DNA of 64,000 nt from a virus: positions 12,087 through 76,086 of IMG/VR virus record IMGVR_UViG_3300005264_000002. One strand, 5' to 3'. The notes below the pieces were generated by a model. That model did no database searches and had not been told where the DNA came from. It saw nothing but the letters and a program-made list of their open reading frames with translations. The position numbers were made by a program, and so were the translations under genes. Positions 10,827 through 24,711 of this stretch are shown one piece after another; the stretch's first letter is position 1; each line of letters begins with the position of its first letter.

Positions 10827-11540
10827 TTGATAATGAAAGTATTAAATTTTATCATAAATATTTTAAGTAAAACTATTGGAGAATGGCATTTTCCTTGGGT
10901 TGATAAAAAATTTAACCTTAAAGATTATTTTCTGATTGAGGGCCAAATTAGAAAATTATCTTCTCCTTTTGTTGTAGGAGTAGTTAAGACTAATGGTCAT
11001 GGATCAAATTTGTTAATTAGATTCGCTCAATTATTTTCTAAAGATGCAAGAAAAAGAAAAGGTGAAATTACTCATGCATTAGCTCATATTGGAATCTATG
11101 ATGGGTATAAGCATAGAGTTGTTGAATCTTTAGGTGATGGGATAAGAGAACATTCTCTATTGGAATCTATTGGTCAAAGAGATACTGTAATTTTAAGGCG
11201 GCCAAATCCAAAATTTTTAAATCCAACATTATGCAATCATGCCATTGATTATATTAAAGAGGTGGCCAAAAGAGATGCTTTCAATAATATCGAGTATGAT
11301 AATGATCATGACTATAAAACTATCCCAATAGAAGATATTATGGATTACACTAATACTAAGAATCTAAAATTAGATTGTAGCGAGACAGTAATGCAAGCTC
11401 TTGAGCATGGTTTTAGAATGACTGGCCAAGTTAGTATAATCAAAATGGTTAAGAGAGGAGGAAAGCTTACCTGGATACCAGCAGATATACTTTTTTCTGA
11501 TCTTTTTATTACTATGTATGATTCAAGAAAGGAAAAGTAA
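10827..11540 (+). CDS. Permuted papain-like NlpC/P60 (YiiX/YaeF-like) hydrolase
   Basis: His before Cys: ITHALAHIG...VVES...YD...LDCSETV...PADI. Confidence 0.75.
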   Translation: MIMKVLNFIINILSKTIGEWHFPWVDKKFNLKDYFLIEGQIRKLSSPFVVGVVKTNGHGSNLLIRFAQLFSKDARKRKGEITHALAHIGIYDGYKHRVVESLGDGIREHSLLESIGQRDTVILRRPNPKFLNPTLCNHAIDYIKEVAKRDAFNNIEYDNDHDYKTIPIEDIMDYTNTKNLKLDCSETVMQALEHGFRMTGQVSIIKMVKRGGKLTWIPADILFSDLFITMYDSRKEK

Positions 11541-12694
11541 TGGCAGAATATCAAACACTCCTTAAACCTAATGCTTGGATAGATCCTCTTTCGTTAGCGG
11601 ATCATTTAGATATTAAGCATATAAAAATTGACGTAATAGCAAATAAAGCTGAGGTTAATATCCAGGATATTTTATGGCAAGCAATTCTTGGGGGAATTGA
11701 GGGAAATGATTATTCTGTTGAATATACAATTGGAGCTGTTGCAGGATCGGAGGTTGTTTCAACCGTTGCTAATAAGATAGTTATTCAAATTGAAGATGGA
11801 GTTTCTTTAAATAGTCAGATAAAAATAGCATTTGATGCTTTTGTTGTCGCTAATCCTTTAAGTATCGCTTCAAATATTTCTGCTAGTATCGTATCAGACC
11901 TCTCTCCTAATGGGGTTGTTGCTACGCCTTTAATTGGAGGAACTAATCCGGATTCAGAACATGCATCAACTCTTAGAAAATTAGAAAGATTTATTAATAG
12001 AGCTTGTTCCAGAATTGAGCAATATATTGATACATCAGCAATGGCCAAATGTTTCCAGGAAGATCTAGACGCAAATAATTCTAATGTTATTGTCCCTACT
12101 CATTGGCCAGTTAAAAGAATTCATGAAATTAAAATAGATTTTAATCGTCAATTTTCATCTTTTACAAAGCTTCTTCCAGAAAATTATTTCTTAAGAGGAA
12201 CTCCCGATAGAAATAGAAATGACCAGGAAGGAGAAATTTCTGAAGTAGATATGTGTACTCAAATCCTTAATGGAAGTGTTGATATAAATTTAATCGGGAA
12301 TGATATTGTTCTTAGAGATGATAATGAAAGATTTATTGTTGGAAGGATATTTGCAGGATCTTCTTTAGGTTCGATTAGAGTAACTTATGACGCTGGTTGG
12401 ATTGTTGGAAAAGAATCATCTATTGATGAGGATACTGGAACAACTGTTTTTAATTTTTCTTTTATCCCTGATGATTTGGAATATGCAGCAACTCTTCTTT
12501 GTGAATGGTGGTATTTCCAAAGAGATAGGAAAGATCTTGGGATTACTTCCAAAGGTGTTAGGGGAGAAAATTATTCCAAAATCGAAACTGGAATGCCAAG
12601 TGAAATCCAAGATATCTTAGAAGCTTATAGAGATTTTTCTTTTGGTCAACACAATACACCTCAAAGAAATATAATGCTGGATATTGATTCATGA
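11540..12694 (+). CDS. Head-tail adaptor (HK97 gp6/SPP1 gp15-like) carrying an inserted module
   Basis: LADHLDI...LERFINRACSRIEQY, IRVTYDAGW, IPDDLEYA, MPSEIQDILEAYR. Confidence 0.8.
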   Translation: MAEYQTLLKPNAWIDPLSLADHLDIKHIKIDVIANKAEVNIQDILWQAILGGIEGNDYSVEYTIGAVAGSEVVSTVANKIVIQIEDGVSLNSQIKIAFDAFVVANPLSIASNISASIVSDLSPNGVVATPLIGGTNPDSEHASTLRKLERFINRACSRIEQYIDTSAMAKCFQEDLDANNSNVIVPTHWPVKRIHEIKIDFNRQFSSFTKLLPENYFLRGTPDRNRNDQEGEISEVDMCTQILNGSVDINLIGNDIVLRDDNERFIVGRIFAGSSLGSIRVTYDAGWIVGKESSIDEDTGTTVFNFSFIPDDLEYAATLLCEWWYFQRDRKDLGITSKGVRGENYSKIETGMPSEIQDILEAYRDFSFGQHNTPQRNIMLDIDS

Positions 12695-13760: not shown

Positions 13761-14372
13761 ATGTCACATTATAGATCAAATTCACACATACAAAATCGAC
13801 TACTTAAAATTGAAGATATTTTTCCTGTAAGAGTCTCTGAAGTTCTTGCCTCATTAATTGAGCAAGATTTAACTTTTACAGCAAAAGCTGGAACTGGAGA
13901 GCAAGGTAATTTAATAAATATCATTTATGTAGCTGGAGCCGTAGCTGGAGCTGAAGTTGTTACTGTTGTTGGGAATAATATCGAAGTTCAAATAGAAGAT
14001 GGTGTTTCTGATGCAACTCAAATTAAAGCTGCTCTTGATGGAGAGCCTCTTGCACTTGCTACAATCACAACTTCAATAAGTGGAGTTGGAGCAAATCCTC
14101 AGTCTGTTTTTACTCCTGCTAAGTTTCTTGCTGGTGGAGTTACAGAAATACCTGGTAAGCAAAGATCTTTTGTTTTTCGGCACTTAGCAACTGATGTAAG
14201 AGTTGATGGAAGAGAAATGACCAGTGTTGATTTTCAAGCAAATGGTGGTTTAGATATTACTTTTGATGCTGGTGGATCATCTTTTACTGTCGTTAAAGCA
14301 GATATAACAATTATTAATCGTTTAAGAACTAAGAGATATCTCGTAGATGCCTCTGCAGTTACAATAGTTTAA
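13761..14372 (+). CDS. Virion-associated protein, about half of which is the shared inserted module
   Basis: aa ~27-128 align closely with the insert in the tail tube protein. Confidence 0.7.
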   Translation: MSHYRSNSHIQNRLLKIEDIFPVRVSEVLASLIEQDLTFTAKAGTGEQGNLINIIYVAGAVAGAEVVTVVGNNIEVQIEDGVSDATQIKAALDGEPLALATITTSISGVGANPQSVFTPAKFLAGGVTEIPGKQRSFVFRHLATDVRVDGREMTSVDFQANGGLDITFDAGGSSFTVVKADITIINRLRTKRYLVDASAVTIV

Positions 14373-14708: not shown

Positions 14709-16286
14709 ATGAGAAATCTTAATTCACGTTCATTTGAAGTTTTAGGAGTTGACCAAAAAATTTGGTTGTCTCAAGAAACTGGAGGATATGGAGAGGCTGC
14801 GACAGGGGGCCTAATCCCTGATGAGACAGGAGCAATCGAACACATAACTGCTGATGTCAAATTTGATATTCCTAGAGAGGATTCTGCAGCAAGATCAGGT
14901 AGATCTTTAGTTACTCGATTGAGTGGAAAGATCAATGTAGAATTTTCTTTTGAAAGCTATATTATTCCTGGTACTCCTGATGCACTTGGGAATCCAACTT
15001 TTCCTCCTACTCATGCTTTTATTCTTTCAGCTTTTGGAGATGTTGATACGTCTAATCCTGCTGAAATCGTTTATAAGCTTTCTAGGTTAAATGATAAATC
15101 TTTCAGACTTATTGAAGAAGCAACTCATTACGCTAGGCTTACTACTGGTTGCGTAATTGATACGGTGACTTTTTCTCTCCCTGGAGATGGGAAAGCTCAA
15201 TTTAAGGCTGATGGATTTGCTCAGAATTCTTTTATAGCTGGTGAAGGTAATTTGTCTCAAGCTATAACTGGTGTTGAGCAATTGGCCCAATTAATAGAGC
15301 AAGATTTAACTTTTGATGCCAAGCCAGGTTCAGGAATTAATGGAAATCTTATCAATATTATTTATATTGCTGGTGGTGTTGCTGGATCTGAGGTTGTTAC
15401 TGTTGTTGATAATGATATTGAAGTGCAAATTGATGATGGTGTTTCCAGTGCTCTTGAAGTTAAAACTGCTTTAGATGGGAATATTGATGCAGCAGCCTTA
15501 ATTACCACAACTATAAGTGGTGTCCCTGGTGGTTCACAGTCAATATTTACTCCTGCTAAATATCTAGTAGGTGGGCTTGGAACTAATGATATCAAAGTTG
15601 GAGATGGTGAAGGCAACAGATATGAAGTTGGAGCTTTAATTGATATTATCCAAGGTGTTGATGGCAACACAATCATAGAATCTCAAAGAGAAATCACTGT
15701 TGTTTATGATATCACGAGTCCTAATGCTGATATCATAACAGTTGGTGGAGCTGCTCTTGCTGCTTCTGTAATTGGAGATTTTGTTATTGGCCATGCTCCA
15801 GAAAATTATGATCCAATAACTTCTGAAAATGCTCTTTTAGGTTTAAAGGGATCTTTTTCAGTAGCAGGATATCAACTTTCTGAATGTGAAATGATTACTG
15901 CTGAAATAGCAATAGCAAATAATTATACTAAGAAAGATTTCATTTATGGAACTAATAAAATTTGTGGATATATCCCTGATAAAAGACGTTCTGTAACTTT
16001 GAAAGTAGATGTTCTTTTGAATAAAAATAACTTCTCTTTCTATATGAGAAATAAGAAGTTTGTTGCTGAGAATGTGACTTTGACTCTTGAGCCAAATGAT
16101 ATTCCTGCTCCATCTTTCGCAAGTTCTGTGGGAAGGACTTTTGAATTTAATCTTCCAAAAGTAGAGTTTAATATTCCGTCTATTGAGAATCCTGGTGATT
16201 CTTATGTGACTCTAAGCCTTGAAGGTGTAGCTTTGGCAACATCTACAAATAGCTTAGATGATGAAATGACTCTTACCATTAAGTAA
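14709..16286 (+). CDS. Major tail (tube) protein with nested accessory insertions
   Basis: Tube-like motifs (GCVIDTVTFSLP, EIAIANN, KRRSVTLKV, FEFNLPKVEF); followed by terminator, chaperone and tape measure. Confidence 0.8.
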   Translation: MRNLNSRSFEVLGVDQKIWLSQETGGYGEAATGGLIPDETGAIEHITADVKFDIPREDSAARSGRSLVTRLSGKINVEFSFESYIIPGTPDALGNPTFPPTHAFILSAFGDVDTSNPAEIVYKLSRLNDKSFRLIEEATHYARLTTGCVIDTVTFSLPGDGKAQFKADGFAQNSFIAGEGNLSQAITGVEQLAQLIEQDLTFDAKPGSGINGNLINIIYIAGGVAGSEVVTVVDNDIEVQIDDGVSSALEVKTALDGNIDAAALITTTISGVPGGSQSIFTPAKYLVGGLGTNDIKVGDGEGNRYEVGALIDIIQGVDGNTIIESQREITVVYDITSPNADIITVGGAALAASVIGDFVIGHAPENYDPITSENALLGLKGSFSVAGYQLSECEMITAEIAIANNYTKKDFIYGTNKICGYIPDKRRSVTLKVDVLLNKNNFSFYMRNKKFVAENVTLTLEPNDIPAPSFASSVGRTFEFNLPKVEFNIPSIENPGDSYVTLSLEGVALATSTNSLDDEMTLTIK

Positions 16287-16403: not shown

Positions 16404-16871
16404 ATGTCTTTGAAACGCTTAAACCCTAATTCTATTTTTAAAATTTGTTCTACTCAAGATCCTGCTATTGATAAAGAGGCAACAGGAGAAGAGAATTTAA
16501 CGAAATATTCTGAAACTCACGATATAGCTTTGCTTAAATTCGTTGAAGGGAAACTTCCTACAATTTTTCATGTAAAAAATATTTCTCCAGAAGATGAAGC
16601 TGAAATCCAAGAGGATCATTATGTTATCCAAATGCCAGATCTCGACAAATTAGAAGGCGAAAAACTTAAAAAAGCAAAACCATCAGTAAAACAGGTTAAA
16701 CAACAACAAATGTTTATGAAATATTTTAAAGCTGGAGTTAAGCATATTGAAGATGATGGGAAGATTGAACCAACATTCACTCCAGGAGAATGGCCATTGT
16801 CAATTCAACAAGAGATCGGTGGATATATTATGATCAAATCTGCTTTAGGAGCAGAAGAAAAAAAGTCTTAA
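16404..16871 (+). CDS. Tail assembly chaperone (gpG analogue)
   Basis: Lies between tube and tape measure; ends in slippery A_AAA_AAG. Confidence 0.8.
   Translation: MSLKRLNPNSIFKICSTQDPAIDKEATGEENLTKYSETHDIALLKFVEGKLPTIFHVKNISPEDEAEIQEDHYVIQMPDLDKLEGEKLKKAKPSVKQVKQQQMFMKYFKAGVKHIEDDGKIEPTFTPGEWPLSIQQEIGGYIMIKSALGAEEKKS
16859..16865 (+). promoter_or_regulatory. Programmed -1 ribosomal frameshift site (A AAA AAG)
   Basis: GAA AAA AAG TCT TAA in frame 0; the -1 frame is open to 17248; AGGAG at 16847-16851. Confidence 0.85.
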
Positions 16872-17248
16872 CTGTCATGATGGGGCTGGCATTAGATCAA
16901 AATCAAAATGTCAAATTAGATTGCTCCAATTGTGACTTGGGACTTCAAAATTTAAGGAATTGCGGTGGGAGGTTTAGAGAGAAGTCTAGATCTCCTATTA
17001 GAGTAAATGAAGAAATTTATTGGATATGTCCAAGATCTTTGATTTTTAATAGGAAGGTAGAAAGTCAACTCTTCAATCTCTATATGACTTGTAAGGACAA
17101 TAATGTTTTTCCTTATGGAGCAGAGCCGCTTAAACAAACGTCCTTTTGTTTAGATGTGTTTAAGTTTTTAGATGGAATTTTAAGTGAATATCACGCCAGA
17201 AAAGACAAAGAACACAAAGCTAAAATGGAGAAGGCCAATAAGATTTAA
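16865..17248 (+). CDS. gpT-like extension of the tail chaperone (fusion ~281 aa), Cys-rich
   Basis: The track ORF 16790..17248 is the -1 frame; contains CSNC..NC...CP. Confidence 0.75.
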   Translation, partial: VLTVMMGLALDQNQNVKLDCSNCDLGLQNLRNCGGRFREKSRSPIRVNEEIYWICPRSLIFNRKVESQLFNLYMTCKDNNVFPYGAEPLKQTSFCLDVFKFLDGILSEYHARKDKEHKAKMEKANKI

Positions 17249-17260
17249 TAGGGAAATGAG

Positions 17261-20200
17261 ATGGCAATTGAAAGGGAAATAAGTGTAAATGTTGTTGGTA
17301 CGGATGAGAATACCAGCAAAACGATACAAAAAGTATCTCAGGCTATAGCTAATCAGCTTGTTAAGGCCACTGCAGCGGCTAATGCTCAATTCAAGCAGAT
17401 GGAAACCAATACAGATAAGACTAATCAGGTTCTCCAGCAAAATCACAAAGCGGCTCAAAAAGTATCAGAACAAAATCAAATGATTGCAGAAAGTCTTGAA
17501 GAAATTAAAGGCAAAGAAGGCATCATTGCCACTATTACATCATCTATGGAAGGTCTTGTTAAAACTGGACTAGGTATAGCTGGAGCTTTTGCTGGGGTAG
17601 TCGCAATTGATAAAACCTTTATTCCTCTTAATGCAATCATGGGGAGCTTAACCAATACTATGATTGGTGCTCAAAATAGAGCTGCTGCAATGTCCACAAT
17701 GTTTAGGCAAACAGCCTCCAAGACATCAATCTTAACTCAAAAATTCAATCAACTAAAATCAAATGGCATTGATGTTATGATCAAGGGATTGAATGTTGGG
17801 AAGACAGCTCTTACCAATACAAGGGCAGTACTTCAAAATTTTACATTCTCTGCTAAAGCATCTGGAGTTATCTTAGCTGGAACCTCTAAAGCCTTTCTAT
17901 CTGCGTCTAAACATACAGAATTATTTGAAAAAGGATTGGCTGGGACTGTAGTAAGAGCATCATTGGCCGGTGCTGCTTTTAATATGTTGGGGATCAACTT
18001 ATTAAGATCAGATAGTATTTTAGGAAAAATGGCAGGAGTAACTCTAATAGCATTAGCAGCCTCTTTGGCCGGTGCTGTCTTTGTCGTTAAACAATTATTG
18101 GCCGCAGTCGGTGGATTGATTCAAAGTATCGGTGACAATTTAACCGCTGCAACTGAAAAGCAGATTGAATTATTTGCTAAGGCCGAAAAGAATACTTTTG
18201 CTTTTACTCAAACTGTTACCAGTTATGCTGAATCGGCGGAAGATGCGGCTGCTCAAACAAATATGTGGAATAGCTTTATTGCTGATACGAGTGCGGCAAC
18301 AGGAGAAACAACAGACTCTCTTCAAGCGTTAGTAGCTGAGACAGTTGCGGCGACAGAAGCAGCTCATCTTAATGAAATTCAAATGAAAGAATTAATTAAT
18401 AGAACAATTGATCTTTCAGAAAGAGCTCATAAACCAGCAATGGATACATTAGTCGCATTGATTAATGGAATGAACGGAGCTGGTCAGTCTGTTATCTCTC
18501 TTGGATTGCATATGAGCGAATCTGCTATCCAACATTCTAAGTTAAATGCAGAAGTAAAAAAGAACTTCAAAAATCTAAGCGATTCTGAAAAGGCTCAAGC
18601 TCGATTTGCTGTACTTATGGAGCAAGCAGGGAAGGCTGCTGGATTTGCTTCTAATAATGCAGATCTTTATAGTAAGTCAGTTAAGCTTCAAGAAAATGCT
18701 CAAAAAGAGCTTAATGCTGAACTTGGTAGGGGTGCAGCGATCATTAATGGCCAATATAGATTTGGTCTGGCCACAGTCACTAGAATGATGACAAATTTTA
18801 TCAAACCTATTCTTCCTGCTATTGGATTCTTAGAAGCATTAGGAGGACGGTTCCTTCAGGTTACAGGATTTATCACTAAAAATATTTTGATAGTTGGATT
18901 TGCAATTAGTACATGGAAAGCTTTCAATATTTTATTGGCCAAAGGTGTTGCTGGTGGAGTATTTGCTCAACAATTACCATTTCTAAATAAATCTATACTC
19001 CAAATTGTGGCCAGTCTTGGAGCAACTAATGCAAATTTAGGAAGTCTCAAAGGTGTTGCACAAACAACTTTTCAAATCCTTAAATCTCAATCTCTAAATG
19101 CAGTCAAATCAATGCTTGGACTTGAAGCTACTGCTAAATTAACAGCAAAAACTTTTTCTACTCAATTAGTTAAAGGATTAAAGGCTGCAGGAAAAGGTGT
19201 ATTGCAATTTGGAAAAAGACTTTTAGTATTATTAGCGAATCCTATTGTCATTAAGTTTGCCCTTATTTCTGCAGCAATCTTTTTAGTAGTTAAAGCTCTT
19301 CAGAAGATTGAAGAAAGAACAGGCATATTTTCAAAGGTATGGGAAAAATTCTCTGCTCAATTCGCTGGGTCTTCTGAGATGTTTCAACCTGTTTTAGATA
19401 TTTTGAAAAAGATAGGAGACATCTTAACGACTGTTATTGGAGCTGCAGTTAAGTTTGTCGCTGCTGCTTTATCTGTTTTTATTGGAAATATATTAAGAAC
19501 TGTTAAAGGTCTTATGTTGCTCTCAAATGTACTATCATTTATGTTGCCTGATGCAATGGTGGCCAGTGCTGAAAGTTTAGAGTCAATTAATAAGCAAATA
19601 GATGTTTTAAATAAAACAGCGAAAGATTTTGCAAAAGAAGGAGCCGCTGATCTATTAGGAATCTTTGTTTCTTCAGCAGAAGCAGCAGATGGTGCAATCC
19701 CAATGGTAAAAGATTGGACTAAAGAATTAGCCAGTGCAGCAGCCGGTGTTGGAAAAATGGAGGAAAAAGCTAAAAAGGCTTTTGAGGCAGTTAAAGATTT
19801 TACTCCTAAAATCAATATGGCCCAATTCCAAAAAGAAACAGCTCAATTTGATACCGCTCTAAAAGGATTAAAGAAAAAACTTGAAGCTCAAAAAATTGTC
19901 TTAATCAAAGCAGGAGCAAATGAAGAAGAGATTAAAACAGTAGAAACTAGGATTTCCCAGACAACAGAAGCAATTAAAGGACTTCAACTAAGATCTGCTA
20001 AAGAAATTCGATCTGCAAGACTTAAAATTGTAGAAACTGAATTAACATCTAGAAAAAATAAAATTTTTACTGTTGAGCAAGAAATTAAACAAATGAGACT
20101 TGATTTTGCTAATGAAACTAGATCACAAGCTATCGAAATTGAGACTCAAAGGATATTAGAGCAAAGGAATCTCGCAACAGATGCAGCCAAGGAAGGGATA

Positions 20201-21406
20201 AGCGTTCGTCAAGCTGCGATTCTTGAAGCAAATAATGTTGAGTTAGAAGCTTTTAGAAGCGGTCTTCAAGCACAAAGTGACTTAGCAATCAATATGGAGA
20301 CTCAAAAGGCCTTAGAATTGGCAAATATTAGAGCTGGAGCTTTAGCTGGAACTCCTGCAGGAGCAGGGGCCAGTGAAGATGTTGAGACATTACAAGCTAA
20401 AGTAAAACAGGAGCAATTGGCCCAATTAAGGGAAAATGATCGAATCTCTGAGCAAGAACATCAGCAAGCATTAACTCAGATTAAAATAAGTCAAATGCAG
20501 GCAAGAACTGAAAGAGAAATTGAGCTGCAAAACAAAAGATCTGAAGCACTAGGATTAACTGAAGCAGGGTTAGAATCTCGTTTAGCTCAAAATGACATAG
20601 TTTTCCAGATGGAAATGGAGCAAATGAGACTCCAGAAAGAAACTATATTTGAAAATGAAGTCCAATTTCAAGAATCAATGAAAGAAATGGAAATTCAGAA
20701 TCAAATAAGCAAATCTGAAACTAGACAGAGATTTATTCAAGAAGAGATTGATCAAAATATTAAGAAAAAAGATAGTTTCGCTGTTTCTTTAGCTCAAATT
20801 CGATTAGCTCAGGCCAAACATGGCCAAGTAATGGGAACATTATTAGGAGTTCAGCAAACAGCAGAATTTAAAGGAGTTCAAGGAGCACTTAGCAATCTAG
20901 CTACTTTAAGAAATTCTAAAGGGAGAAAAGAATTTGAAATTGGAAGAGCTGCTGCTTTGGCAGGAGCCGGTGTAAATATCGCCCAGGGAATAATTGCTTC
21001 ATTAGCTCCTCCTCCAATTGGTGCTGGGCCATTAATGGGGCCAATTTTAGCTGGAACAATTGCCGCTGCTGGTGCTGTTCAGATGGCCCAGATTAGTGCT
21101 CAAAAATATCCTGGTGGACAGGCCGATCAAGGTATGGATTCAATTCCAAAATCATTAAATGGTAAATCTTTTATCTTATCTGCAGGAGAAAGAGTTGTTC
21201 AGCCTGAAGCAAATAAGAAATTAACTTCTTTCTTAGATCAACAAGAGAAATCTGGTGGAGGAGGGAATATTTTCCATATTCATATTGGATCTGTTGATAG
21301 TGATGATAGAGTTGAGCAAGTTGCTCAAAGAGTTAAGAGTATCATTAGAGAAGACTCTGAGAGAGGTGAACCAATTATAAGTGCTAGGGGAGTCGTTAAT
21401 GAGTAA
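17261..21406 (+). CDS. Tail tape measure protein
   Basis: 1381 aa, Ala/Gln-rich helical with hydrophobic segments; C-terminal LSAGERVV motif; follows chaperone. Confidence 0.92.
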   Translation: MAIEREISVNVVGTDENTSKTIQKVSQAIANQLVKATAAANAQFKQMETNTDKTNQVLQQNHKAAQKVSEQNQMIAESLEEIKGKEGIIATITSSMEGLVKTGLGIAGAFAGVVAIDKTFIPLNAIMGSLTNTMIGAQNRAAAMSTMFRQTASKTSILTQKFNQLKSNGIDVMIKGLNVGKTALTNTRAVLQNFTFSAKASGVILAGTSKAFLSASKHTELFEKGLAGTVVRASLAGAAFNMLGINLLRSDSILGKMAGVTLIALAASLAGAVFVVKQLLAAVGGLIQSIGDNLTAATEKQIELFAKAEKNTFAFTQTVTSYAESAEDAAAQTNMWNSFIADTSAATGETTDSLQALVAETVAATEAAHLNEIQMKELINRTIDLSERAHKPAMDTLVALINGMNGAGQSVISLGLHMSESAIQHSKLNAEVKKNFKNLSDSEKAQARFAVLMEQAGKAAGFASNNADLYSKSVKLQENAQKELNAELGRGAAIINGQYRFGLATVTRMMTNFIKPILPAIGFLEALGGRFLQVTGFITKNILIVGFAISTWKAFNILLAKGVAGGVFAQQLPFLNKSILQIVASLGATNANLGSLKGVAQTTFQILKSQSLNAVKSMLGLEATAKLTAKTFSTQLVKGLKAAGKGVLQFGKRLLVLLANPIVIKFALISAAIFLVVKALQKIEERTGIFSKVWEKFSAQFAGSSEMFQPVLDILKKIGDILTTVIGAAVKFVAAALSVFIGNILRTVKGLMLLSNVLSFMLPDAMVASAESLESINKQIDVLNKTAKDFAKEGAADLLGIFVSSAEAADGAIPMVKDWTKELASAAAGVGKMEEKAKKAFEAVKDFTPKINMAQFQKETAQFDTALKGLKKKLEAQKIVLIKAGANEEEIKTVETRISQTTEAIKGLQLRSAKEIRSARLKIVETELTSRKNKIFTVEQEIKQMRLDFANETRSQAIEIETQRILEQRNLATDAAKEGISVRQAAILEANNVELEAFRSGLQAQSDLAINMETQKALELANIRAGALAGTPAGAGASEDVETLQAKVKQEQLAQLRENDRISEQEHQQALTQIKISQMQARTEREIELQNKRSEALGLTEAGLESRLAQNDIVFQMEMEQMRLQKETIFENEVQFQESMKEMEIQNQISKSETRQRFIQEEIDQNIKKKDSFAVSLAQIRLAQAKHGQVMGTLLGVQQTAEFKGVQGALSNLATLRNSKGRKEFEIGRAAALAGAGVNIAQGIIASLAPPPIGAGPLMGPILAGTIAAAGAVQMAQISAQKYPGGQADQGMDSIPKSLNGKSFILSAGERVVQPEANKKLTSFLDQQEKSGGGGNIFHIHIGSVDSDDRVEQVAQRVKSIIREDSERGEPIISARGVVNE

Positions 21407-22272: not shown

Positions 22273-24711
22273 ATGTCACAGAACATATTCAAAAATCCAT
22301 TTGTATCATCTCCTCCAACTTTAACAGGAGCATCAGTTGGAAATGGGACATTAACGATAGATCGTTTGACTCATTTCACAATAAACCAAGATTATACTGC
22401 TGTTTGTACAGCGATAACTCCTTTTACTGTTTTTAAAATTATTGGAAGTTTAGATGGATCTGTTGGAGTTGCTGTTGTTGGGACTCAATTCTATGATCAA
22501 GATCTTAAGGTTTTCTTAACTATTAATCAAGGTCCAACTACTTTTCAAATTGGTGATACTTTTGAATTTACTCTTGATCAAGGGACAGATCTAAATAGAG
22601 AAAATATTGATTTATATGATGAATTACCTCAAAAGAATTTTGGGGTAGGTGTTCCAGGCTCAATATCTGGTGATTATAATATCAGATTAAATACTACTGG
22701 AATTGATGCTTTTAGAATTATCCAAGACTTAAAATTCACTTCTAAAATCTCAGGTGCAGAAGGGAATGAAATTTCTATAGAATATCTTGCTGGATCTGTT
22801 TTGAGTCCTGCATCATTAATTATCCAAGATTTAACTTATACTGCTTCACCAGGTGAAGCTGGGAATGGAATATCAATTCTATATACTCAATTCACTCCTG
22901 GAGTTGCGGCCACTAGAGATGTTCAAGATATTAATTGGACAGCAGATAATATTGGGGTAAATGGAAATTATATTTCAATGGTTTATATTGGTGGAGGAAC
23001 TGCTGGTTCTGAAATTGTTAATGTAACAGGGACAGGAACAGGCGGCGATCCATATATAATCACAGTCACTATTGAGGATGGAGTTTCTTCCGCTGATCAA
23101 ATTAGATTGGCCGTTGGACTTCATGGAGTGGCTGGACCGCTAGTTGATGGGATTGCTCTTGGGACAGGATTAGAGCCTCAAAGTATTCAAGCTCAGATCT
23201 TTCTTTTAGGTGGATTAGATCCAATTGGTGACGCTGGAAATGAAGTTGTCAATGTAGTTGCTCTTCAGATTGAAGTTATTTTAGAAAGTGGAGTTTCAAC
23301 TGCTCAAAATGTTTATGATGCTGTTTTTGCCTCTCCTGCTGCTTTAGCATTAGTTACCCCTACAATTTCAGGGACTCCAGCTACAACTCAAACTGCCCCT
23401 GTTGCTGAGGCAAATTTAACAGGTGGAGCAGATGATGTTGGATTACCAGGATCAGAAGTTGTCAATGTATCTGACAAGGCCATTGAGGTCACTTTTAATG
23501 ATGGATTATCTACTGCTGATCAAATTAAAACAGCAATTGAAGGAGATATTGATGCTAATGCCCTGGTTACAGTAACTATTGAAGGTGTTGGGGCCAATTT
23601 CCAAGACTCTCCTGTTGTTAGAACATTTCTTAGATCGGGACAATTGGCCGGGACTTTTGCTTTTAACTCTGAAGAGTTAACCGTTCCTGGTTCTTTTTTT
23701 GAAGGTAATGCCAATATTTTAGCAAACAATCTTAACCTTCAAAATGAATTAAATGTTGAAGGAGAGTCCGAATTTAGAGGAAAAGTTAAATTCGATGATG
23801 CTATTCCAGCAAATAATTCAGGTCCATTAATCGAAAATAATCAAAAAACAATTAATAATCTTATCCAAAATGGAAAAGTTTTTCTTCATACAGTAAATGA
23901 TGAAAAAATGGAGTGGTCAGATCCTGCTGGGACATTAACGCTTTTAGATGACATTAATATTGTATTTTGTGAAACTAATATTGTTAATACAATTCTAGCT
24001 ACTGATGGGCCATTTGTTATTGCTGATGGTGAGCATTTATATGTGACAGTTGATAGAGAGAATAATGTTAATCTTACGACTACAATAGCTTCTACTGTTC
24101 CAAATAGTCCTAATGGAGAAAATATTTTTAGATTAGTTTCTAGGGTAGGTGATTCATTAGTCTGGTTTGATAATACTCTTCAAACTGAAGGCAAGAATAT
24201 TAGAATAGGTGAAGGTGGAGCTGGTGGAGTTGGCTATCAAGAAAAGTTAGGAAATGGCGATGGAGCAGTTACAGCTTTTGGCCCTTTAACTTTTATTCCA
24301 TCTTCTGAAAAATCCATTCTTGTTTTTTCAAATGTTATTAATTTTGTAACAACTGATTGGACATATAATGTAGTCCAAAATCAAATTGACTTTATAACAC
24401 CACCTCCTTTGGGAGCAGAAATTTATGTCTTTTATTTAACAGAAGGTGAAACTTTATCAGTTCCTACTCCAAGTGGAGTAGAACGTGTTGAATATAGAGA
24501 TATAACTTTAGCTGAAGAAACTGCCAAACAATTGACATTAGCAAATCTTCCTGCTGAACCAACTAAAGTTAAATTAGATATTATTGGTGGATCAGCTCAA
24601 AGATATACGGTTGATTTTATTGTTACAGGAAGCATTTTGTCATGGAGTGGTTTAAGACTTGATGGAGTCTTAGTTGAAAATAGTGAAGTAAGGATAAATT
24701 ATTATTCTTAA
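22273..24711 (+). CDS. Modular virion fibre/appendage protein with three self-nested copies of the shared module
   Basis: Three N-halves followed by three C-halves (22702-23643); two small C-terminal beta domains. Confidence 0.75.
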   Translation: MSQNIFKNPFVSSPPTLTGASVGNGTLTIDRLTHFTINQDYTAVCTAITPFTVFKIIGSLDGSVGVAVVGTQFYDQDLKVFLTINQGPTTFQIGDTFEFTLDQGTDLNRENIDLYDELPQKNFGVGVPGSISGDYNIRLNTTGIDAFRIIQDLKFTSKISGAEGNEISIEYLAGSVLSPASLIIQDLTYTASPGEAGNGISILYTQFTPGVAATRDVQDINWTADNIGVNGNYISMVYIGGGTAGSEIVNVTGTGTGGDPYIITVTIEDGVSSADQIRLAVGLHGVAGPLVDGIALGTGLEPQSIQAQIFLLGGLDPIGDAGNEVVNVVALQIEVILESGVSTAQNVYDAVFASPAALALVTPTISGTPATTQTAPVAEANLTGGADDVGLPGSEVVNVSDKAIEVTFNDGLSTADQIKTAIEGDIDANALVTVTIEGVGANFQDSPVVRTFLRSGQLAGTFAFNSEELTVPGSFFEGNANILANNLNLQNELNVEGESEFRGKVKFDDAIPANNSGPLIENNQKTINNLIQNGKVFLHTVNDEKMEWSDPAGTLTLLDDINIVFCETNIVNTILATDGPFVIADGEHLYVTVDRENNVNLTTTIASTVPNSPNGENIFRLVSRVGDSLVWFDNTLQTEGKNIRIGEGGAGGVGYQEKLGNGDGAVTAFGPLTFIPSSEKSILVFSNVINFVTTDWTYNVVQNQIDFITPPPLGAEIYVFYLTEGETLSVPTPSGVERVEYRDITLAEETAKQLTLANLPAEPTKVKLDIIGGSAQRYTVDFIVTGSILSWSGLRLDGVLVENSEVRINYYS

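Follow-up and report, generated by a model that had tools for sequence, protein, structure and literature searches.

Protein repeats almost always grow as tandem arrays. Among the described systems closest to the one reported here, the sheath proteins of contractile phage tails carry a protruding domain (PF17481; T4 gp18 domain II; 3LML; 3HXL; phiCD508 and phi812) which is itself an insertion and can in turn host an insertion, an arrangement presented as a Russian doll in a passage of PMC6088184 that cites Aksyuk et al. 2009 and 2011. The SI3 region of the cyanobacterial RNA polymerase beta' subunit consists of sandwich-barrel hybrid motif domains with up to six nesting levels, in which a small beta domain is inserted recursively in like copies and the scheme A1-B1-C-B2-A2 is repeated, giving an elongated arm (PMC13114784; PMC10895346). 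Here we describe a module, predicted to share the fold of the sheath protruding domain, that is repeated three times in P0001, the 812-amino acid (aa) product of a tail-tip/baseplate-region gene (22273..24711, + strand). The gene lies in a 64,000-nucleotide (nt) stretch of a viral genome (IMG/VR record IMGVR_UViG_3300005264_000002, positions 12,087 to 76,086), hereafter the window, to which all nucleotide coordinates refer.

In the sheath proteins, domains of different folds are nested in a host that is the sheath core, whereas in P0001 one module appears nested in itself; furthermore, hosts of the P0001 type are virion proteins of non-contractile siphophages without sheath core, and their similarity to PF17481 lies below the Pfam threshold. 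SI3 resembles P0001 in the recursive nesting of one small beta domain, but fold, host protein and biology are unrelated, and its nesting is branched and of mixed depth, while the phage module shows clean A^nB^n nests of 1 to 8 levels, two split sites and length polymorphism among close relatives. The hairpin of flagellin and hook-associated proteins (D0-D1-D2-D3-D2-D1-D0) also runs out and back, with outer domains made from two segments and an uninterrupted tip, as in P0001; however, its levels are different folds including helical bundles, and the P0001 nest gives no evidence of polymerisation or flagellin homology. Immunoglobulin (Ig)-like decoration domains are likewise small beta-rich modules found on several structural proteins of one phage, and by analogy with them the P0001-type module is presumably surface-exposed and dispensable for assembly, although Ig-like decorations are appended or in tandem, not self-nested. 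Full-text literature searches, in which absence is no proof, returned no account of this module nested in itself or of an A^nB^n series in a phage protein, and its self-nesting appears to be undescribed.

Evidence for nested pairing of the repeat halves in P0001

Self dot-plot and unit extraction on P0001 gave, across aa 144-461, three short N-type units (A, about 34 aa) followed by three longer C-type units (B, about 71 aa), in the order A1 A2 A3 B1 B2 B3 and all on the + strand. In the structure model each A is strand-strand-short helix-strand and each B is strand-strand-helix-strand-strand. A1 (aa 144-177, 22702..22803) is assigned as the N-part of the outermost domain D1, A2 (aa 178-210, 22804..22902) as the N-part of the middle domain D2, and A3 (aa 211-243, 22903..23001) as the N-part of the innermost, uninterrupted domain D3, whose C-part is B1 (aa 244-318, 23002..23226); B2 (aa 319-389, 23227..23439) and B3 (aa 390-461, 23440..23655) are the C-parts of D2 and D1, respectively. 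We consider it very probable that aa 144-461 form three nested domains of the same fold (D3 = A3+B1, D2 = A2+B2, D1 = A1+B3), a grade which covers the whole explanation, that is, the nesting together with the sheath kinship, the rod geometry and the proposed antenna role and recombination route set out below. The preliminary description had read the region (22702-23643) as two N-halves, a complete third copy and then the C-halves of copies 2 and 1, with a total of three times about 105 aa, and both order and size were recovered: the spliced lengths are 106 aa for A1+B3, 104 aa for A2+B2 and 108 aa for A3+B1, and the spliced modules are collinear with uninterrupted modules of 105-106 aa, with 36-49% identity. 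Its claim that every copy enters the same loop also agrees with the alignments, where the break falls between ...Y..G and G.(A/P)G.EVV.

The significance of the repeat was assessed with an uninterrupted module copy encoded at 13842-14156 as BLASTP query against P0001. The full-length module aligned with aa 218-318 (E 9e-13). Used by itself, the C-part hit aa 391-456 (E 1e-11) and aa 321-393 (E 1e-9), and the N-part hit aa 146-176 (E 3e-5); by sequence comparison, the A/B repeat similarity is far beyond chance.

Profile hidden Markov models (HMMs) of A and B were run on 212 relatives obtained from two database searches. The resulting A/B words are balanced in 164 of them under strict matching and in 181 with relaxed A matches. 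AB was found in 48 relatives, AABB in 26 and AAABBB in 76, together with one each of A4B4, A5B5 and A6B6 and two A8B8, both of which were checked by eye; further words are tandem forms such as ABAB and the branched AABABBAABB. Nesting depths of 1, 2, 3, 4, 5, 6 and 8 are represented, in line with the recursion anticipated in the preliminary description. Unbalanced words are mostly fragments or missed 25-residue A motifs, with one confirmed exception, P0037. Neither A (34 aa, three strands) nor B (71 aa) is a complete domain, each being part of one domain of about 105 aa, and their numbers are coupled, in contrast to an ordinary tandem repeat, in which a self-contained unit varies freely in copy number.

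Co-variation was analyzed by mean-field direct coupling analysis (DCA) of 82 three-level orthologues, considering the top 100 A-B couplings. A1 has 6 couplings with B1, 5 with B2 and 15 with B3; A2 has 5, 29 and 3; and A3 has 27, 7 and 3, respectively. The nested blocks hold 71 of the 100 couplings, against about 33 expected. In the comparison that discriminates nested from crossed pairing, A1B3 plus A2B2 give 44 couplings and A1B2 plus A2B3 give 8. The strongest off-pattern pairs (210-317, 208-318 and 175-384) join an up-going A-to-A linker with a down-going B-to-B linker, and since they lie at the linker junctions they are as the nested topology predicts.

An AlphaFold2 model of whole P0001, based on a 59-sequence alignment, has a predicted local distance difference test score (pLDDT) above 90 across aa 140-460. 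Folding aa 135-467 alone with an 82-sequence alignment gave a pLDDT of 96.3 and a predicted TM-score (pTM) of 0.80, so the relative placement of the three domains is confidently predicted by the model. In residue numbers of this aa 135-467 model, the phiCD508 sheath domain (residues ~96-205, contiguous) superposes on residues 76-181, corresponding to D3 (Z 7.8, 96 aligned), and the same domain superposes on residues 7-325, corresponding to D1, with 95 residues aligned over a 319-residue span (root mean square deviation, rmsd, 2.8; Z 8.2); because only 95 residues are aligned across that span, they can only be A1 plus B3. D2 (residues 41-255) aligned with T4 gp18PR (86 aligned, 20% identity, Z 3.6) and with the KP1 sheath (82 aligned, Z 2.3). 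According to the D1 and D2 alignments, the co-variation and the spliced lengths, each host domain is built from two segments that flank a complete insert. Architectures, co-variation, model and superpositions together bear out the pairing N1-C1, N2-C2 and N3-C3 of three same-fold domains that the preliminary description had put forward; the structure prediction that it had suggested places the sheath domain clearly on D3 and on the split D1, and weakly on D2.

Two deeper nests provide an independent check and show the same arrangement. The units that resemble one another are, in the 6-level P0080, the first 4 N-parts together with the last 4 C-parts and, in the 5-level P0172, the first 3 together with the last 3; the mirror correlations are 0.92 and 0.99, compared with -0.33 and -0.43 for parallel pairing.

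Fold of the module, split sites and geometry

Alignment of the models with the PDB pointed almost exclusively to the fold of the domain that contractile-tail sheath proteins expose on their surface, and no other fold reached Z >= 5 for the nested region in a search of 48,161 chains. The clear sheath matches have Z of 7.1-8.2, 87-96 aligned residues and 16-21% identity. They include the phiCD508 sheath (Z 7.8-8.2, 95-96 aligned), Lin1278 (3LML; Z 7.5-7.6, 20% identity), DSY3957 (3HXL; Z 7.1, 21% identity), and the phi812 sheath (Z 7.1-7.9, 93-99 aligned); listed by PDB chain, 9g8s_e gives Z 8.2 (95 aligned, rmsd 2.8) and 9gb1_1 gives Z 7.8 (96 aligned); the Halogeometricum borinquense sheath follows (Z 5.7, 95 aligned), and the T4 gp18, phiKZ and P1 sheaths are weaker matches. 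The module has the same predicted fold as the solved sheath domains. Foldseek with the whole 812-residue model gave zero matches at E <= 0.001, its top rows being other domains, and the sheath match surfaced only through VIA alignment and folding of the region alone.

Sequence profiles point in the same direction. A profile of 27 uninterrupted modules, compared with PDB sequences, retrieved sheath proteins only, with an alignment that spans the motif L-T-x-T-A...G-x-x-G-N-x-I, and the N-terminal motif common to the module and the sheath domains is L-T-x-T-A...G-x-x-G-N-x-I-x-V. Pfam sets the gathering score of PF17481 (Phage_sheath_domII) at 31.4 bits; the matches of relatives below this threshold span profile positions 5-97 of 98, and one relative matches a "tail sheath" PHROG. 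In our reading, the module is distantly related to the PF17481 domain, has gone unannotated and falls outside Pfam membership by the curated cut-off.

The module is present in 317 representative sequence clusters at E <= 1e-3, and a scan of IMG/VR gave 113 confirmed module loci in viral contigs, mostly single copies. Its hosts are adaptors (in this phage, in P0134 and in P0079, which has a SU10-adaptor domain), tube proteins, Baseplate-J-containing giants (P0119) and proteins of 200-300 aa. Two split sites are used. Site 1, after strand 3, is found in P0001 and in the 8-level P0077, with A periods of 31-34 aa and B periods of 68-71 aa, while site 2, just before the VSTA helix, is found in P0080, P0172 and the 8-level P0124, with A' and B' periods of about 56 and 48 aa; the lineage with site 2 reaches 5, 6 and 8 levels. 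Since P0077 and P0124 are split at different sites, depth 8 has been reached twice, by different routes. P0078 and P0122 are branched nests, in which AABABBAABB corresponds to a host module with two tandem inserted modules, then a separate two-level nest.

In the nested topology, the chain of P0001 would run up through A1, A2 and A3 and return down through B1, B2 and B3, each copy being inserted in the same loop of the previous one, after the third strand. Two antiparallel, mutually contacting linkers would lie at every domain junction, in agreement with the double crossing of the junctions expected in the preliminary description, and because each junction is crossed by two contacting linkers the stack is expected to form a fairly stiff rod that ends in D3. 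The stiffness claimed in that description finds indirect support in the pTM and in the co-varying linkers. Its term stalk holds for the stacked, projecting domains and fails for the idea of a spacer between the flanking domains: the chain exits where it entered, and the stack is therefore a side projection and cannot hold the N-terminal domain and the C-terminal part at a distance from each other. The rod would project sideways at the boundary between this C-terminal part and the N-terminal anchor domain and would not lengthen the main axis. It may serve as a surface antenna or decoration that reaches further the more levels it has, a role proposed because the adaptor, the tube and a 203-aa protein of this phage carry the same module as a decoration.

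Gain and loss of levels and alternative explanations

In sequence, A^nB^n is equivalent to two adjacent tandem arrays, which in the P0001 gene have periods of about 102 nt and 213 nt. P0037 (aa 148-423) is a natural A2B3 form, placed in a three-level clade, which is without exactly one 34-aa A unit and keeps three B units; either the protein copes with its unpaired half or this is a defective gene. Recent amplification in P0080 and P0172 has affected the outermost A and outermost B units instead of the central complete copy, the halves of these amplified outer levels lie hundreds of residues apart, and the fine-scale similarity orders differ between the A and B arrays. Most gains and losses of levels would stem from unequal homologous recombination inside the A array and inside the B array, and selection would then restore equal A and B numbers. 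Such coupled change in the two arrays, with balance kept by selection, is the route we favour, because P0037 is unbalanced, the outer levels are young and the similarity orders differ. A single register-shifted double crossover, with its left junction between A units and its right junction between B units, could be an alternative mechanism.

The preliminary description had argued that a special, site-preferring duplication route was implied. As the main route, the non-homologous insertion of a complete module, in one step, into a preferred loop of the innermost module is rather unlikely. It would explain the first step from AB to AABB, which is not obtainable from one simple tandem duplication, and it fits an insertion-competent module that sits in loops of the adaptor, the tube and other proteins as well as the existence of branched forms such as A(AB)(AB)B (P0078); moreover, a single deletion of the central A3+B1 block would keep the balance. 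However, the youngest units of P0080 and P0172 are the outermost levels with halves far apart, their A and B similarity orders differ, an A2B3 protein is found in nature, and the insertion site is not unique, since a second lineage is split at a different loop. The junction signal has also gone from the P0001 gene at the DNA level: repeat and tandem-repeat searches of the gene found only residual similarity (B1 vs B3, 83% over 40 nt; A1 vs A2, 79% over 28 nt) and no surviving junction signal. The claim is not supported as stated, on account of the two arrays, P0037, the outer-level amplification and the second split site, and survives in part, as one-step module insertion is necessary or plausible for the founding events and the branched forms. 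B-unit trees and unit-by-unit identities did not resolve the duplication order, and P0080 had no relative in a scan of viral contigs. A tree of the N-terminal domain scatters 2-level and 1-level forms among 3-level forms with weak support, which phage mosaicism could also explain.

A second alternative retains the nested partners and pairs them between subunits by three-dimensional domain swapping, in which case the array would be an oligomerisation device instead of a monomeric rod. Tail-tip proteins are usually trimers or hexamers; the halves of a split beta-sandwich could in principle complement each other in trans, and the unbalanced P0037 could be rescued in this way. Co-variation reads alike for pairing in cis and in trans. 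However, each of the three domains is closed in cis in the monomer model (pLDDT 96, pTM 0.80), and the short A-A and B-B linkers of 4-8 residues, together with the co-varying linker pairs, fit a hairpin in cis, and we regard trans pairing as improbable.

That A and B are independent tandem arrays which fold separately, as an A-repeat sheet followed by three tandem B domains without nesting, is very improbable and already largely refuted: the plain AAA then BBB order and the unequal P0037 would suit it, but A followed directly by B is one module of about 105 aa in at least 48 proteins and in three genes of this phage, A3+B1 superposes as a single domain on solved sheath domains and A1+B3 likewise across its 319-residue gap, the A-B couplings concentrate on the anti-diagonal blocks, and A and B counts are equal from 1 to 8. 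A parallel pairing of the units (A1-B1, A2-B2 and A3-B3) was also considered and was ruled out by co-variation, linker lengths and mirror patterns.

Several points weigh against the nested-rod explanation or parts of it. The structural match of D2 is weak at Z 3.6 and 2.3, the domain pairing in the model was deduced only from where each alignment starts and stops and from how many residues it covers, AlphaFold2 and DCA share overlapping input signal and are not fully independent, and the mirror-similarity test was not significant on the 8-level P0077 (r 0.13). Concerning the sheath kinship, P0001 has no match to the PF17481 HMM of Pfam, and its relatives stay below the threshold, with 25.7 bits for P0028 and 14.5-17.1 bits for P0080, P0100, P0101 and P0163. 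The rigidity of the rod is a prediction from the pTM and the linker couplings, and the surface decoration or antenna role is a suggestion. Finally, the unit-by-unit comparison did not identify which level was lost in the two-level and one-level orthologues.

The locus and single-copy modules elsewhere in the phage

A database search recovered 91 homologues of the P0001 open reading frame (ORF). Upstream of it lie, in order, the 1381-aa tape measure gene (17261..21406) and a 276-aa gene at the position of the distal tail protein (Dit), and only the position of P0001 after these two genes suggests a siphophage tail-tip hub (Tal). Further upstream are genes for a portal, a major capsid protein, a gp6-like adaptor, an HK97-gp10-like protein, a Phage_tube_2 tube protein and two overlapping chaperone-like ORFs, and minor-tail and tail-fibre genes are found downstream. 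Given these structural genes, from portal to tail fibre, the window is the structural module of a siphophage; its G+C content is about 33%. The two overlapping ORFs (16404-16871 and 16790-17248) are located between the tube and tape measure genes, at the position of the tail assembly chaperone pair, which is usually joined by a programmed frameshift. The 276-aa ORF has a GTG start 26 nt upstream of the tape measure stop (21381-21406), and its sole family match is phrog_8610, of function unknown.

P0001 itself has no usable Pfam or PHROG family in profile searches with the protein, zero matches in the INPHARED phage collection by tblastn and only chance-level matches to PDB sequences by phmmer. 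Its N-terminal domain (aa 1-143, 22273..22701, + strand) is kept in all orthologues with many invariant columns. Within it, aa 10-102 (22300-22578) are beta-rich and resemble the D2 domain of FlgL/FlgK and the Wzc periplasmic domain (VIA Z 7.2-8.4, ~82 aligned, with 82-83 aligned and rmsd 2.7 for the matches at Z 8.2-8.4); FlgL/FlgK-like matches come from this domain with VIA and from the Atlas structural neighbours. No gp27-like hub domain was found in P0001 by Pfam or PHROG, and the fold matches of aa 10-102 are of FlgL/FlgK/Wzc type, not hubs. The C-terminal part (aa 462-812, 23656..24711, + strand) ranges from about 200 to more than 1400 residues across orthologues, whereas the first 143 residues are highly conserved, and this combination of conserved N-terminus and length-variable C-terminus is, as far as sequence patterns go, that of a tail-tip or fibre protein which is anchored at one end and variable at the distal one. 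Within this part, aa ~650-729 (24220-24459) form a small jellyroll with Z of about 8.2 to the T7 gp17 N-terminal domain, CBA120 TSP4 XD2 and a roseophage R4C baseplate protein; such small jellyrolls are typical protein-protein docking modules of tail fibres. The last segment, aa 733-812, is a beta-sandwich in the structure model.

Single uninterrupted modules were found in three other genes, all on the + strand. The A/B HMMs located one at 11642..11959 in the head-tail adaptor gene (11540..12694) and one at 15279..15593 in the tail tube gene (14709..16286; Phage_tube_2), and HMMs and BLASTP located another at 13842..14156 in the 203-aa ORF (13761..14372), which brings the phage to six module copies in four virion genes. 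None of these hosts, namely the adaptor (HCP/gp6-like), the Phage_tube_2 tube, the 203-aa ORF and the tail-tip protein, has a sheath core domain (PF04984 or PF17482). The modules of the 203-aa ORF and the tube share 67% protein and about 68% DNA identity, compared with 36-50% for other pairs, which suggests a comparatively recent copy between the two genes.

On balance, we lean towards regarding these proteins as an undescribed self-nesting family of virion decorations, with an A^nB^n grammar and depths from 1 to 8, deeper than the six levels of RNA polymerase, in which depth 8 was reached twice through two loops, levels would change by coupled events in two arrays, and the product may be a rigid antenna of tunable length on tail and neck proteins. 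A natural series of self-nested forms, running from 1 to 8 levels of one domain, would be a rare alternative to tandem growth, indicating that a rod with double-stranded junctions can be built from a domain that is insertion-competent and has adjacent termini and a permissive loop, and it raises the question of how the copy numbers of halves hundreds of residues apart stay matched. For protein design, the nest may offer a ready scaffold, rigid and length-programmable, with its tip domain on an uninterrupted stretch. For phage biology, this unannotated, widespread module would link siphophage decorations to the outer domain of contractile sheaths.

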